A DNA stretch of 64,000 bases from Armatimonadota bacterium (GCA_038207085.1 JBBRAE010000012.1:1-64000), one strand, 5' to 3'. Positions 29,317-61,802 are shown, numbered from the stretch's first letter. A program made the numbers and translations. Notes: generated from the sequence alone by a model not told the origin.

Positions 29317-30870
29317 ATGAGAACCATCGGGGCAATGGATATCGGCACAAACTCTATTCGGATGCTCGTAGTTCGGATCGAGGAGGGCCACGATTGCAGC
29401 GTGCTCTCGACCTACAAGGAGGTCGTTCGGCTCGGTGAGGGCGAGTTTACCCACAACAAGCTCACCCGTCCCGCTATGGAGCGGGGGCTTCTGGTCGTGC
29501 GCAAGTTCGCCGACATCGCCCGACGCTGGGGGGCCGAGAAGATCATCGCCGTCGCCACTTCAGCCGTCCGGGAGGCCCAGAACCGAGGCGAGTTCGAGGA
29601 GCGTGCGCTCTCCGAGTGCGGAGTGGACGTTCGGGTCGTCTCAGGAGTTGAAGAGGCGCGGCTTATCTACCTCGGAGTGGTTTCGGGGGTCGACATCGGA
29701 AGCTCGCGGGGGATGTTCATCGACATCGGCGGCGGCACGACCGAGCTGATCATCGGCGACCACCGCGACTACCAGTTCCTCGACAGCCTGAAGCTCGGCG
29801 CGATCCGCCTCGCAAACATCTTCCTCGCGGGAGAAACCGGGCCCGTGAGCAAGAGGAAATACCGCCAGATGCTCGACTACTCCAGGGGGGTCTCGAACCT
29901 CGCCGTGCGCAAAGTCAACGAGATCGGCTTTGACCAGGCCTACGGCAGCTCCGGCACGATTATGAACCTCGCCGAAATCACCGCCAAACGCAAAGGCGCA
30001 AGCGTTTCGAGCATGCGCAACTTCAACTTGAAGTATGATGACCTCGCGGAGACGATTCAGATACTCTGTGGGCTTTCGGTTGAGGAGCGGAGGAACGTTC
30101 CAGGGATCAACCCCGAGCGCGCCGATATCATCATCAGCGGCGCGGCTGTGCTCGACTCGATCCTGACGAGCGTCGGCGCACCGAGCATCACCGTGAGCGG
30201 CCGCGCGCTTCGCGAGGGGATCGTGGTCGATTACCTATTTGAAGAAGAACACGTCCGCGAGGAGTTCTTGCAGATATCGGCGCGCGAGCGGAGCATCATG
30301 CAGCTTGCCCGCACTTGCCACTTCGAGGAGGGCCACGCCGTCCGGGTGCGCGACCTCGCCGTCTCGCTCTTCAGGCAGCTAAGAGATATGGGCCTGCACG
30401 CCTACGGTGACGTCGAAGAGGACCTGCTCAGGCACGCCTGCATAACCCACGACATCGGCTCGTTCGTATCGCACACCAACCACAACAAGCACAGCTACTA
30501 TCTTCTGAGAAACTGGGATTTGCTCGGTTTCGACGACGAAGAGATCGAGATCATCGCGACGACTGCGCTATGCCACAGAAAGCTGACCCCCAAACAGGTG
30601 CGCGGCAAGAAGCTCGACGCCTCGGCGCTCAGGCTGGTTGAAGTGCTGACAAGCGTTCTGCAGGTCGCCGATTCGCTCGACATAAGCCAGCTCGACCTCG
30701 TAAACGATGTGGCCGTGCGAGACCACCGCGACGGCCGGATAATCCTCGAAATCTTCGCCAGGGGCGCATGCGAGCTTGAGATGTGGGCGCTTGAGCGCAA
30801 GAAACGGCTCTTTGAGCAGACGTTTGGCGTGAAGCTCGACGTAAGAGTTATTGTCGCTGGCGGCGGTTAG
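29317..30870 (+). CDS. ppx: Exopolyphosphatase Ppx/GppA, full length with HD domain
   Basis: MDIGTNS, ATSAVREA, EEARL, DIGGGTTE, HDIG, HNKHSYY motifs. Confidence 0.92.
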   Translation: MRTIGAMDIGTNSIRMLVVRIEEGHDCSVLSTYKEVVRLGEGEFTHNKLTRPAMERGLLVVRKFADIARRWGAEKIIAVATSAVREAQNRGEFEERALSECGVDVRVVSGVEEARLIYLGVVSGVDIGSSRGMFIDIGGGTTELIIGDHRDYQFLDSLKLGAIRLANIFLAGETGPVSKRKYRQMLDYSRGVSNLAVRKVNEIGFDQAYGSSGTIMNLAEITAKRKGASVSSMRNFNLKYDDLAETIQILCGLSVEERRNVPGINPERADIIISGAAVLDSILTSVGAPSITVSGRALREGIVVDYLFEEEHVREEFLQISARERSIMQLARTCHFEEGHAVRVRDLAVSLFRQLRDMGLHAYGDVEEDLLRHACITHDIGSFVSHTNHNKHSYYLLRNWDLLGFDDEEIEIIATTALCHRKLTPKQVRGKKLDASALRLVEVLTSVLQVADSLDISQLDLVNDVAVRDHRDGRIILEIFARGACELEMWALERKKRLFEQTFGVKLDVRVIVAGGG

Positions 30871-59167: not shown

Positions 59168-59548
59168 ATGGTCCGAAGTATAATTCAGACCGCCCTAGTC
59201 GCCGTATTTGCGGTGATAACAGCTGGCACGTGCCAGAATACGCTTGTAGAGGCGGCGACGCTGGGCGTCGGGGTGATGATCCCACCCCAACCCACGCAAT
59301 ATCCGGCGCAGCTTTCGTTTGAAAGAGACATCAAGCCGCTCGCCGACTCGCACTGCAAGGAGTGCCACGGCGAGATTATGTCCGACTACGCAAATATCGC
59401 ATCCAAGAAATACATAACCCCCGGCTCGCCTGACCAGAGCCGATACTATACCAAACCGACCGGCAAGGCAAGCCACGGCGGCGAATCGGCATGGAGAGAC
59501 AAAGCCGACACCATCAGAAATTGGATCGAGACCGGAGCGGCGGGCTAG
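59168..59548 (+). CDS. Small exported monoheme c-type cytochrome
   Basis: SFERDIKP....CKECH....PGSP..S...WI..GA pattern resembling the planctomycete cytochrome c domain. Confidence 0.75.
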   Translation: MVRSIIQTALVAVFAVITAGTCQNTLVEAATLGVGVMIPPQPTQYPAQLSFERDIKPLADSHCKECHGEIMSDYANIASKKYITPGSPDQSRYYTKPTGKASHGGESAWRDKADTIRNWIETGAAG

Positions 59549-60246
59549 GCCTTGCCCCTCCAGCACTCTTCTCTTCTTGAGCCGAGCGCGGCGATGACCA
59601 GGTCGGCGATGCCCTCGGTTCCGAAACAGTCGGCTACTGCCATCAGGTCATAGGCGAGTGGCTCGTTGATATCCTTGCCGTAGACGCTCTTGATAAAGGC
59701 TGCGCGGTCACGATCGGAGGCTCGGATGCGGTGACAAGCCTCGTCTTGGGTCAGCCCTTCGAACTCGACCAGGTTGCGGACCCTCAAATCCTCGGAGGCG
59801 ATCACCCTCACGCTCAGGGCGTCAGGCAGAATGAAGTTTGCGCCGCGCCCGACAATCACCGCGTCGCCGTGCTTTGAGATCGACAAGAGCGCGCGGGCGA
59901 GGTGTCTCTTATAGAGGAACCCACCGGCGTCCGGCTGACCGGCGAATATGCGGGCGAGTTGCTCGATGTCGGAGACGGTGTGCTCGTCGAACGCTTCAAC
60001 GATCCGGCGGCTGACGTAGGCGTCGTTTGCAACGGCGTCGACCAAGTTCTTGTCCCAAAGTGTATAGCCAAGTTTTTGGGCTAGCTTCTCGGCCACGAGC
60101 TTGCCGCCGCTTGCTAGTTGACGGGAGATGACGATCGTCGGCCCGTGCGGAAGCGCCGGCTCTGTACCAGCGGACTTGGCCGCCTCACGGAGTATGGACG
60201 AACGATAGACCTGTTCGTCGACCAGTCGAACTATGTTGTTTGTCAT
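59545..60246 (-). CDS. Cytidylate kinase-like family protein
   Basis: ISRQLASGG, VIVGRGANFIL, DRDR, YDL motifs. Confidence 0.9.
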   Translation of the reverse strand: MTNNIVRLVDEQVYRSSILREAAKSAGTEPALPHGPTIVISRQLASGGKLVAEKLAQKLGYTLWDKNLVDAVANDAYVSRRIVEAFDEHTVSDIEQLARIFAGQPDAGGFLYKRHLARALLSISKHGDAVIVGRGANFILPDALSVRVIASEDLRVRNLVEFEGLTQDEACHRIRASDRDRAAFIKSVYGKDINEPLAYDLMAVADCFGTEGIADLVIAALGSRREECWRGKA

Positions 60247-60371
60247 GTTCGCTCCCCTTTCCTTTACATGTTATATGTATATACCCATTCAAGGTCAGGG
60301 GTTCATTCACGTGTGGGGGCAGTTGGCAGAAGAAAACTTACAGAGCACAATTTAAGCCAAAACCTGGCAAT

Positions 60372-60387
60372 TGGCACAGTTCTTGCA
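60372..60387 (+). promoter_or_regulatory. Sigma54 promoter 1
   Basis: TGGCACAGTTCTTGCA consensus match. Confidence 0.85.
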
Positions 60388-60397
60388 GTATATATAA

Positions 60398-60500
60398 GTG
60401 AGAAGATAATTCTCTTTTTCTCCTTCCTAAAAATGTGTTGTGAATTAAGACCGCGGCTGGCCCGCGGACCCGGTGGTGAAAGCCAACCGGGTATTTTTTT
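60398..60500 (+). ncRNA. Putative sigma54-dependent sRNA, copy 1
   Basis: Promoter, conserved core, hairpin, intrinsic terminator with U-tract; no credible ORF. Confidence 0.72.
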
Positions 60501-60589
60501 GTCTGGGCAGTGGCTTCAAGCGTGCCCACCCTGCTCCAAATGCCTCTGTGTAAAAATATTTTTCAAATTCCTGTAAAAACTGCGAGCAT

Positions 60590-60605
60590 TGGCACGGGTT
60601 TTGCA
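60590..60605 (+). promoter_or_regulatory. Sigma54 promoter 2
   Basis: TGGCACGGGTTTTGCA consensus match. Confidence 0.85.
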
Positions 60606-60615
60606 GTATATATAA

Positions 60616-60724
60616 GTGAGAAGATAATTCTCTTTTTCTCCTTCCTAAAATGTGTTGTGAATTAACCGAAGGGACGCAAGTCCTGGAGGACCCGCAGAAC
60701 TCCTAGTCCTGCGGGATATTTTTT
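60616..60724 (+). ncRNA. Putative sigma54-dependent sRNA, copy 2
   Basis: Same core as copy 1, GCAA-tetraloop hairpin, CCCGCAG/CTGCGGG terminator + U-tract. Confidence 0.72.
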
Positions 60725-60734
60725 GTACCAGCTA

Positions 60735-61802
60735 TCACCCGAGAATTCGCCGGTAGACCTGCTCGACCTCGTCGGCCATCCTCCGGGAGGTGAATCTATC
60801 ACAGACGACCTCGCGCGCAAAACTGCCGAGTCGCTTTGCCAGGTCGCGGTCTGAGATCACCCGCTCGATCGCACGTGCGAGTGAGTGGTGGTCCCCCGAA
60901 GGCACGAGCAAACCGGTTTCGCCGTCGCGAATGAACTCAGGCACACCACCAACGGCTGTGGCGACGATCGGGAGCGCGCTTGCCGCCGCTTCGAGCAACA
61001 CCATCGGCAGCCCCTCCCGCAGTGACGACATGGCAAAGACATCCAGCGAAGCGAACACTCCCCAGGGAACATCGACGCGCTCGAAGATGAAAAGTCTGTC
61101 GCCAACGCCAAGCTCCTGCGCCAGCCGCCTGAGCTTCTTCAGATATCTGGGTTTCCCATAGCCGACAAGCACTATTTTTGCTTCAGGAAGCAGCGCCGCC
61201 GCCCGAACAAGCATATCAAACCCTTTGACCGCCGCCAGCCTGCTCACCGCGCCAACGAGGACGTCACCGGGCGCAAAGCCGTGATCTTCTCGGAAACCCG
61301 CATTGGGGAGCGGGTATTCGGGGAGGCCAATGCCGTTTTGTATGACGTCGACTCTGCCACGGAAGCCCCGAGACTCAATATCGCACCGAATATCGTCAGA
61401 CACCGTGATCGTCGCATCGGCGTCCATGCAGTAGAGCGGCTCCAAAAGCCCGTGCACCGTGCAGACGGAGCGCACCCCAAGCCGCTTCGCGACCGGAAGC
61501 GCAATCACCGAGTCGAGCTTGAGGTGAGAATGCACGAGGTCTACCCTGTGGCGCTCAATGATCGACTTGATGCGACGCGGCCCGATCAGCTTGGAAGACA
61601 ACCCCTTCATAGGAAGCGTCTCGACGGGCACCCCCCTGTCGATCGCACACCGCTCAACCCACGATCCCGACCGGCACGCGAGCACGGTGCGGTAACCGCG
61701 GGCCACAAACTCATCGATCAGACCCAGGACAACCCGCTCGGCCCCTCCGATGGAGCGACCCGACATGACATGAAGAATGGTTGGCGTGTGGCAAGAATGC
61801 AT
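60735..61802 (-). CDS. GT4 family glycosyltransferase
   Basis: GGAER, HSH, TVHG, NGI, EGLPMVLLEA, VGGVPE motifs. Confidence 0.93.
   Translation of the reverse strand: MHSCHTPTILHVMSGRSIGGAERVVLGLIDEFVARGYRTVLACRSGSWVERCAIDRGVPVETLPMKGLSSKLIGPRRIKSIIERHRVDLVHSHLKLDSVIALPVAKRLGVRSVCTVHGLLEPLYCMDADATITVSDDIRCDIESRGFRGRVDVIQNGIGLPEYPLPNAGFREDHGFAPGDVLVGAVSRLAAVKGFDMLVRAAALLPEAKIVLVGYGKPRYLKKLRRLAQELGVGDRLFIFERVDVPWGVFASLDVFAMSSLREGLPMVLLEAAASALPIVATAVGGVPEFIRDGETGLLVPSGDHHSLARAIERVISDRDLAKRLGSFAREVVCDRFTSRRMADEVEQVYRRILG

Follow-up and report, generated by a model that had tools for sequence, protein, structure and literature searches.

By comparison of sequences, we confirmed that two tandem units on the plus strand of an Armatimonadota genome belong to a conserved multi-copy family of predicted RNAs, which among the genomes searched is confined to one Armatimonadota class. 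It is highly probable, judging from the sequence data, that these units are real sigma-54-dependent small RNAs (sRNAs). They lie in an intergenic stretch (60247-60734) of the window, that is, of the whole 64,000-nucleotide stretch of DNA that was analysed, and this stretch is bordered on either side by a minus-strand gene. The source genome is a draft in 83 contigs, in which no 16S gene is assembled. The features of the region, in coordinates of the window, are the following.

59545..60246, minus strand: gene for a cytidylate-kinase-like protein (PF13189), flanking and outside the RNA units
60372..60387, plus strand: sigma-54 -24/-12 promoter of unit 1, TGGCAC-N5-TTGCA, TGGCACAGTTCTTGCA
60398..60500, plus strand: predicted sRNA unit 1, about 103 nt, from the MFE fold; covariance-model match at 60400-60500, 61.7 bits
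60412..60428, plus strand: CU-rich seed of unit 1, CUCUUUUUCUCCUUCCU, complementary to AGGAAGGAGAAAAAGAG; its columns are nearly invariant in alignment A2
60433..60445, plus strand: GU-rich seed of unit 1, AUGUGUUGUGAAU
60451..60467, plus strand: stem-loop P2 of unit 1 (CCGCGG-CUGGC-CCGCGG), from the fold
60468..60500, plus strand: intrinsic terminator of unit 1, with stem 60468-60492 and U-run 60494-60500, from the fold
60590..60605, plus strand: sigma-54 -24/-12 promoter of unit 2, TGGCAC-N5-TTGCA, TGGCACGGGTTTTGCA
60616..60724, plus strand: predicted sRNA unit 2, about 109 nt, from the MFE fold; covariance-model match at 60618-60724, 74.7 bits
60630-60646, plus strand: CU-rich seed of unit 2, CUCUUUUUCUCCUUCCU
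60650-60662, plus strand: GU-rich seed of unit 2, AUGUGUUGUGAAU
60671-60684, plus strand: stem-loop P2 of unit 2, from the fold
60691-60715 (stem) and 60719-60724 (U-run), plus strand: terminator of unit 2, with GTAC then at 60725-60728
60735..61802, minus strand: gene for a GT4 glycosyltransferase, convergent with unit 2 and not under these promoters

The RNA starts were placed about 11-13 nt past the GC of the -12 element and the ends were deduced from the U-runs. Our search for RNA sequencing runs containing positions 60250-60800 of the window returned none. In a relative (L108), a cytidylate-kinase-like gene likewise adjoins a member of the family.

A sequence-only reading of this DNA had described two units 218 bp apart, each with a consensus -24/-12 promoter, and the sequence confirmed it. 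The pattern TGGCAC-N5-TTGCW had only 2 matches in the 64-kb window, with 0.07 expected from shuffles and not one of 100 shuffles containing 2 or more. The blocks 60383-60448 and 60601-60665 (66 and 65 nt), said to be identical except for one A, were so in the pairwise alignment (AAAAA versus AAAA), and 3' of this shared block the two units diverge in sequence. It was also possible to recover the common architecture that had been proposed for their differing hairpins: each MFE fold opened with a short 5' hairpin, left the core unpaired, and continued through a GC-rich hairpin to a terminator stem with a U-run behind it; the z-scores against dinucleotide shuffles were -2.82 for unit 1 and -2.47 for unit 2. 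The core strings quoted in that reading, CUCUUUUUCUCCUUCCU and AUGUGUUGUGAAU, were found in both units. A simple terminator scan flagged neither terminator, because their stems carry bulges; its sole flag was the unit-1 hairpin, on the minus strand.

The same reading had called for a genome scan for further copies, and there proved to be more than the two seen. BLAST with the core detected a third copy on contig C26, which shares 253 nt with positions 60472-60724 of the window at 6 differences and has unrelated flanks; these differences and flanks indicate a diverged segmental copy and not an assembly echo of the tandem pair. A fourth copy was located at C5:54614-54722, without a recognisable sigma-54 promoter. 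In relatives the same anatomy was observed, namely, promoter, core, variable stem-loop, and terminator, and arrays of two or three copies recur among them, which bears out the sibling character attributed to the pair. The proposal that the family is undescribed, together with the Rfam/Infernal search suggested for it, also held. The whole window gave 0 Rfam matches at gathering score; at E <= 10, the region 60200-60800 matched one unrelated family (E = 1.2) on the opposite strand; six related loci gave no Rfam match, and the portion of the literature available to us contained no paper on small RNAs in Armatimonadota.

The distribution of the family was delimited with patterns and with a covariance model. 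An exact-pattern scan of public genomes, one per species, returned 47 matches at 44 loci. Full anatomy was present in 26 of the 47 matches (23 loci, 13 of them titled Armatimonadota or Armatimonadetes and 10 with unclassified titles), while the remaining 21, from Vibrio, Treponema, archaea, and others, had neither promoter nor terminator and look like chance. Alignment A2 comprised 30 distinct members, and the region 3' of the core was not alignable by sequence; the covariance model, R1, was built with a structure taken from the folds of individual sequences. Matches to R1 were obtained in 27 of 36 genomes of the order and in 38 of 53 genomes of the class. In a sample of the phylum searched with stricter filters, 10 of 151 genomes matched, all 10 being among the 14 sampled genomes of the class, and none of the 137 genomes outside the class did. 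The neighbouring genes vary by lineage (PPDK_N/PFK, ParA/Peptidase_C25, Rce1-like, and cytidylate-kinase-like). Short variants occur in two other families of the class, where the sigma-54 promoter, AACAUCUUUUUCUCCUUC, and the terminator are kept and the GU motif and the middle stem are absent. The same CU seed is also found behind ECF-like or sigma-70-like promoters in related small genes.

The structure was evaluated on a model-guided alignment of 58 matches, 45 of them distinct. Across the 45 distinct members, 85.8% of cells were paired and double changes were present in 18 of 26 pairs; on each of five measures, the observed value lay beyond all 500 shuffles, and in controls with slid partners the pairing fell to 45-53%. 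The middle stem (P2) showed double changes in 5 of 5 pairs of its inner part and in 4 of 4 of its outer part, and the terminator helix was 94.5% paired over the 45 members, with double changes in 5 of its 9 pairs. In the 5' hairpin, formed by GAGAAAAA with UUUUUCUC, double changes were found in 4 of 8 pairs at 80.6% pairing; it is the least secure element, because its pairing comes mostly from conserved bases with little covariation. MAFFT and RNAalifold on the raw alignment recovered the terminator and nothing else, so that the middle stem needed the model-guided alignment, which was fitted to the supplied structure and is hence biased towards it. The unpaired GUGUUGUG was invariant in 30 of 30 aligned members (A2), and the CU-rich stretch was nearly invariant. 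The suggestion that selection acts on an RNA agrees with these data, in which the stems covary while the core stays almost unchanged. Taking into account that the covariation is restricted to the plus strand and that U-runs stand behind the stems, the selection points to a transcript. On structural grounds, each unit would be a discrete non-coding transcript with its own terminator, independent of the neighbouring genes.

The promoters of the 45 distinct members were then classified with regular expressions. The strict form TGGCAC-N5-TTGC[AT] was present in 32 and a near-consensus form with one or two departures (TTGCC, TGGTAC, TGTGCA, and similar) in 9; 4 had no match, one of which still reads TTGGCAC-N5-TTGT. 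The promoters are located 6-13 nt from the start of the model, with the strand of the core and its distance fixed, and a conserved CCTG..A..TGC..GG block lies directly upstream of the -24 element. The presence of rpoN in the genome, on which the sigma-54 assignment depends, was verified: the source genome has two rpoN genes, both of which pass TIGR02395. In the class, rpoN was over the cut-off in 46 of 53 genomes, and the RNA was found in 38 of those 46 and in none of the 7 without it; given that related genomes are not independent, this association overstates its own strength and should be taken as supportive and not as a formal test. Other consensus sigma-54 promoters were also present in the source genome, at 23 sites against about 6 expected (by hand arithmetic), and they precede flagellar genes, four PEP-CTERM proteins, and a REC-PilZ protein.

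Concerning the activator, the absence of an enhancer-binding protein gene from the window had been correctly noted: PF00158 matched on contigs C31, C8, and C22, weakly in other places, and not at all on this contig. The source genome encodes three NtrC-type REC-AAA+ activators, as follows.

Activator 1: REC-AAA+-HTH, clustered with a hybrid histidine kinase and the second rpoN; common to the order
Activator 2: REC-AAA+ without an HTH or other DNA-binding domain; common to the order
Activator 3: restricted to family f1

The phylogenetic profile of activator 3, which is found in f1 only, excludes it as the activator of the RNA family, and the profiles exclude no other. Both shared activators are present in four genomes of the order that have rpoN and no R1 match at E <= 0.001. 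Among 52 flanking ORFs of 26 loci there was no activator gene beside the locus, none of the NCBIfam equivalogs for activators, that for LuxO included, was over the cut-off, and inspection by eye of 40 upstream regions revealed no conserved distal activator site. In the tandem arrays of relatives, just 27-45 nt separate a terminator from the next promoter; speculatively, this spacing would suit an activator without a DNA-binding domain.

A key aspect of the family is what the core may recognise. The reverse complement of the consensus core, GGAAGGAGAAAAAGAUG, consists of a Shine-Dalgarno sequence, an A-rich spacer, and AUG. In a relative the 16S rRNA has the tail GAUCACCUCCUUUCU, so that the CU-rich half is similar to the anti-Shine-Dalgarno sequence of the ribosome itself. 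The CU-rich motif is the older part of the core, since the short variants of the two other families lack the GU motif. When the pattern CACAACACWTT-N8-48-RGGAG-N4-12-ATG was searched in the 36 genomes of the order, 5 matches were obtained versus 0 for the reversed control, and a sixth leader came from a separate search. In all six leaders the CA-rich element precedes the ribosome-binding site, usually with a small hairpin between the two, and the ORFs behind all six start with signal peptides. With respect to Pfam PEP-CTERM, the six ORFs were distributed as follows.

1 ORF: over the cut-off, 21.5 bits
2 ORFs: just below the cut-off, 19.3 versus 20.7
1 ORF: with a VPEP...RR tail, by eye only
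2 ORFs: without sign of PEP-CTERM

All six CA-rich leaders belong to another family of the order (f2); for one of these leaders, the genome (G022) yielded no member of the RNA family. The predicted duplexes between leader and cognate RNA were bipartite, with z-scores of -1.8 to -5.2; since the motif had served to select the leaders, this test is circular.

In the source genome itself, pairing was predicted to be better at the 13 PEP-CTERM gene starts (ranks 7, 52, and 64 among about 3060) than at other genes, and the Mann-Whitney test gave p = 0.022, against p = 0.41-0.97 for six shuffled seeds; the anti-Shine-Dalgarno motif fits strong ribosome-binding sites generally, so this enrichment could simply reflect strong sites. 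An ungapped genome-wide complementarity scan of this genome showed nothing that stood out except the antisense strands of RNA genes, and a scan of its 5' regions with the GU seed only was no better than with shuffled seeds (maximum of 31 versus up to 30). Leaders with CA-rich elements complementary to the GU-rich motif were thus present before six secreted-protein genes in f2; in the source genome, the ungapped and GU-only scans remained at background. The top duplex candidate of the source genome was C46:17182-17739, which encodes a secreted protein with a weak PEP-CTERM score; its homologues in 3 of 5 genomes of the family are weak, at 32-36% identity, and do not conserve the leader. The 14-mer GCCACAACACTTTA, with at most one mismatch, matched mostly RNA genes, and the remainder was about equal to the matches of the reversed-pattern control (rough hand count); three of these matches were singled out by leader context alone. 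For the HAF-repeat PEP-CTERM candidate, the search for a homologue in the source genome gave a weak partial match at best. An Hfq gene is present in the source genome (97 bits), and the units have a U-tail and a U-rich core.

We consider it likely that the units are best explained as independent genes for trans-acting, sigma-54-dependent sibling sRNAs that pair at translation-initiation regions, with PEP-CTERM-type targets as the likeliest. The course of events that we infer would begin with sigma-54 RNA polymerase, which would transcribe each unit after activation by an NtrC-type response regulator encoded elsewhere, presumably one of the two that are common to the order, either the REC-AAA+-HTH protein or the REC-AAA+ protein without DNA-binding domain. 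Each RNA would stop at its own intrinsic terminator and would be laid out as a weak 5' hairpin, an unpaired near-invariant core of about 30 nt, a variable stem-loop, and the terminator. Within the core, the CU-rich half, (CAU)CUUUUUCUCCUUCC, would cover the Shine-Dalgarno sequence and the spacer and, in most members, extend over the AUG, and the GU-rich half, AAAGUGUUGUGG, would bridge the small leader hairpin and pair with a CA-rich element that precedes the start codon by about 25-50 nt. The result would be that ribosome binding is blocked, probably with the assistance of Hfq. That the RNAs act by pairing at ribosome-binding sites seems to us somewhat more probable than the contrary. The targets would most likely be mRNAs for surface proteins with signal peptides and of PEP-CTERM type; that such mRNAs are the main targets is plausible, at a little under an even chance. 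Sigma-54 by itself only activates, and through these RNAs it would gain a repressing arm over the cell exterior.

The related small genes allow a wider proposal, which we find rather doubtful as a whole: a portable CU-rich "anti-start-site" seed, placed under re-wired promoters, directed to shared targets sorted by the PEP-CTERM/exosortase system, and originated from inverted leaders. It would comprise a superfamily with a seed of about 17 nt under promoters of three or more kinds (sigma-54, ECF-type GGGAAC-N17-CGTA, and sigma-70-like), whose short RNAs are often in tandem arrays of up to four, and by which several pathways of stress and surface remodelling might converge post-transcriptionally on the same set of surface proteins. 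If the RNA genes were inverted copies of target leaders, this would explain that their complement resembles a CA element, a Shine-Dalgarno sequence, and AUG.

Other explanations were weighed against that of trans-acting sibling sRNAs, and every one of them fits less well with covariation on a single strand, with neighbours that vary, and with a core collinear with leader elements. The RNAs could be made and serve as decoys, their core titrating Hfq, ribosomal protein S1, or another protein that binds RNA, in the manner of CrcZ of Pseudomonas, which is sigma-54-dependent and sequesters Hfq/Crc. An invariant unpaired core of about 30 nt suits binding by a protein no less than pairing as a seed, the source genome encodes Hfq, no single mRNA target stands out there, and the multi-copy tandem layout would raise the dose. 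Known decoys, however, have several repeats of their motif, whereas each RNA of this family has one CU and one GU motif, and a protein site would predict neither the matching leaders (5 versus 0 reversed) nor a core whose order follows that of a CA element, Shine-Dalgarno sequence, and AUG in reverse complement; we regard a decoy as improbable. At the level of DNA, promoters and core might be regulator sites or remnants of a mobile repeat, with the RNA as a by-product. The CA/GU motif is indeed the same double-stranded sequence, in opposite orientation, in RNA genes and mRNA leaders, the CCTG..A..TGC..GG block is conserved just 5' of the -24 element, and contig C26 carries a 253-nt duplicate of part of the locus, but the stems covary on the plus strand only and are followed by U-runs, the strand of the core and its distance to the promoter are fixed, and the loci are syntenic within lineages, with no terminal inverted repeats and no transposase genes. 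Such an origin of the signal is very improbable.

It could also be argued that the units encode small proteins, either on the plus strand from an ATG in the GU motif, considering that AUGUGUUGUGAAUUAA opens with ATG in the source genome, or on the minus strand, which in most relatives reads GGAAGGAGAAAAAGATG, a look-alike of a Shine-Dalgarno sequence plus ATG. On the plus strand the one-A difference puts the two units in different frames past the core and their peptides are unrelated, AAAGTG replaces AATG in relatives, and the downstream length differences are not multiples of three in a region that covaries as stems; on the minus strand the ATG is missing from the source genome and from several relatives, the frame would enter the promoter, and the sole upstream element is the terminator. 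In the absence of a conserved frame and with covarying stems, the small-ORF reading was rejected, and it appears the most remote of those considered. The last explanation takes the units as cis-acting leaders or attenuators of the neighbouring genes and not as trans-acting RNAs. Some CU-rich relatives do lie directly 5' of same-strand genes, such as C31:18620-18701 before an encapsulin gene; in the window, on the contrary, the units carry a terminator each and are flanked on either side by an opposite-strand gene, and in relatives the genes downstream differ by lineage and the tandem copies leave 27-45 nt between a terminator and the next promoter. By reason of the opposite-strand neighbours, the own terminators, and the varying downstream genes, the cis-leader reading was rejected as highly unlikely.

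The trans-acting sibling sRNAs proposed here can be compared with known systems. Vibrio Qrr1-5 are sibling sRNAs dependent on sigma-54 and LuxO (PMC3730234; bioRxiv 10.1101/2021.07.01.450815). With Qrr1-5 (RF00378), the family shares a consensus sigma-54 promoter, a size of about 100 nt, near-identical siblings with one invariant seed, an own terminator, and the presumed Hfq-assisted pairing at ribosome-binding sites. It differs in the phylum, the frequent tandem arrays, and the bipartite CU-/GU-rich seed, and also in that no PF00158 gene is on the contig or beside the 26 loci, whereas qrr1 adjoins luxO. Nothing was found that links the family to quorum sensing, and the lack of any Rfam match, RF00378 included, gives no sign of homology to Qrr. 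In the case of GcvB, a GU-rich seed pairs with CA-rich elements upstream of the Shine-Dalgarno sequence. An unpaired GU-rich seed is common to GcvB (RF00022) and the present family, in which the CA-rich elements of the six leaders are its predicted partners; however, there is no RF00022 match, the RNA is half the size, the promoter is of sigma-54 type and not GcvA-controlled, an anti-Shine-Dalgarno half is added, and the candidate targets are secreted proteins of PEP-CTERM type instead of amino-acid transporters. The SigmaE-dependent MicA, RybB, and MicL of E. coli are described as sRNAs that constitute a repressing arm over envelope proteins (PMC4102768). The shared logic is that of a sigma factor which only activates, with repression in our case being a prediction, and the sequences are unrelated and the sigma factor is different. 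In Campylobacter jejuni, CJnc230 is an RpoN-dependent sRNA of the flagellar cascade (PMC11187230). The units described here, as predicted sigma-54-dependent sRNAs tied to a regulon for cell-surface structures, resemble it. CJnc230 is processed from a flagellar mRNA, whereas each of the units has a promoter and a terminator of its own, and CJnc230 and the units are unrelated in sequence. Overall, the family would mirror the logic of Qrr, GcvB, and the sigmaE sRNAs, and by the Rfam test it appears homologous to none of them.

Armatimonadota are known almost wholly from metagenomes, and neither Rfam nor the part of the literature at hand yielded a regulatory RNA described for them. The family is a concrete and testable candidate for a post-transcriptional regulator of this phylum, and the covariance model R1 can be used by annotators of these genomes. 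As sigma-54-driven sibling sRNAs outside Proteobacteria, its members would constitute a second and independent case. To our knowledge, the regulation of the PEP-CTERM/exosortase secretome is poorly understood, and the family may provide a tie between sigma-54 and its control. If the superfamily with a shared seed were true, it would be an instance of one seed re-wired to different sigma factors.

The predicted sRNA family has a third and a fourth full-length member in G000, the draft genome that holds the window (C and L numbers denote contigs and extracted loci):

C26:4386-4524 (L002:1490-1628; L156), third copy, near-identical to unit 2
C5:54614-54722 (+) (L155:2115-2223), fourth member, full length, 66.5 bits with R1, the covariance model of the family

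The C26 copy has 253 nt in common with window 60472-60724, with 6 differences; the shared block begins within the unit-1 terminator, and the flanking DNA is unrelated. In the C5 member the CU and GU core, the middle stem and the terminator were all present, and the sigma-54 promoter was replaced by a degenerate look-alike, CGGCAT..GAGCA, which is one base short.

Straight after the terminator U-run most members carry GTAC (UUUUUGUAC), located in the window at 60725-60728. On the upstream side, a semi-conserved block abuts the -24 element and is itself preceded by an A/T-rich stretch:

window 60345-60370 and 60563-60589, and in relatives, block CCTG-N2-A-N3-5-TGC-N2-3-GG

The block is possibly a site for a regulator or of the IHF type. 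Neither the window units nor the relatives showed a distal palindrome upstream of the family promoters. Other consensus sigma-54 promoters of G000 were located as follows:

C6:87247, 98858 and 104825 (+)
C2:63306 (-)
C8:124340, C10:18447 and 24729, C24:27867 and C22:43497 (+)

Three sigma-54 promoters, of subtype CTGGCACGGTAATTGCT, lie upstream of flagellar genes (rod protein, FliO), and others lie upstream of genes for PEP-CTERM proteins and a REC-PilZ protein.

The (CAU)CUUUUUCUCCUUUC seed of the family also occurs in other short genes ending in terminators, both in G000 and in relatives, and the relative G025 has tandem arrays of short variants:

C30 ~30190-30300 (+) (L151), C20:21250-21330 (-) and C9 ~82850 (+) (L152), short seed-bearing genes of G000
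L141 and L144, short seed-bearing genes of relatives
G025:C82:8766-9497 (array of four) and G025:C47:38-415 (array of three), tandem short variants of ~74 nt each (L218, L221)

The seed is sometimes followed by a second block, CACCUCCUUUCCUCU, which resembles the 16S tail. A look-alike of an ECF-type promoter, GGGAAC-N17-CGTA, precedes three of the short genes; the C9 gene has TTGACG-N17-TAAAAT. The G025 variants consist of ACAUCUCUUUUUCUCCUUUCUAUGUGUG and a terminator behind promoters that are ECF-like, not sigma-54, and they matched R1 with weak scores (E = 0.006-0.4).

A third, very short type of RNA-like gene is formed by GCACAAACAAC-CAUCUUUUCCUCCUUCC and a terminator, with a TATAAT-like box in front; within the order, its antisense 17-mer is shared by 14 or more genomes.

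L129, L132, L140 and L146, third-type genes in genomes of family f2

Other elements met in G000 were these:

C31:18620-18701 (-), short RNA-like element with CU/GU core and terminator
C14 ~41776 (-), C47 ~7582 (+) and C30 ~3362 (+), three copies of a purine-rich repeat, GGGAAGC(A/G)GGG.C.GGGGATTAGCTTCGGGG
L002:1690-1770 (C26, downstream of the third copy), inverted-repeat element ...AGCGAAAGCTTTATTCGCTTCACGAATAAAGCGGGCTAG...
upstream of C4:133399-134568 and of C24:28063, the same inverted-repeat element

In the region C31:9674-18739, an encapsulin (Linocin_M18) gene lies immediately downstream of the C31 element, and ~2-4 kb from the element a gene cluster combines a hybrid histidine kinase, a sigma-54 activator and an amino-acid permease with the second rpoN. 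The purine-rich repeat reached a high complementarity-scan score through many G-U pairs. The inverted-repeat element, with at least three sites, is possibly of the REP or MITE kind.

Seven of the eight occurrences of GGAGAAAAAGA in G000 are antisense to the short seed-bearing RNA-like genes. The sole site of the genome not antisense to an RNA-like gene is at C2:180673-180780 (+), and downstream of it there is a 28-codon hydrophobic ORF (MHTLLAAASWFAVLFIVVVPP...), possibly encoding a small membrane peptide. The ORF is also a possible target, with a perfect match of 14 nt.
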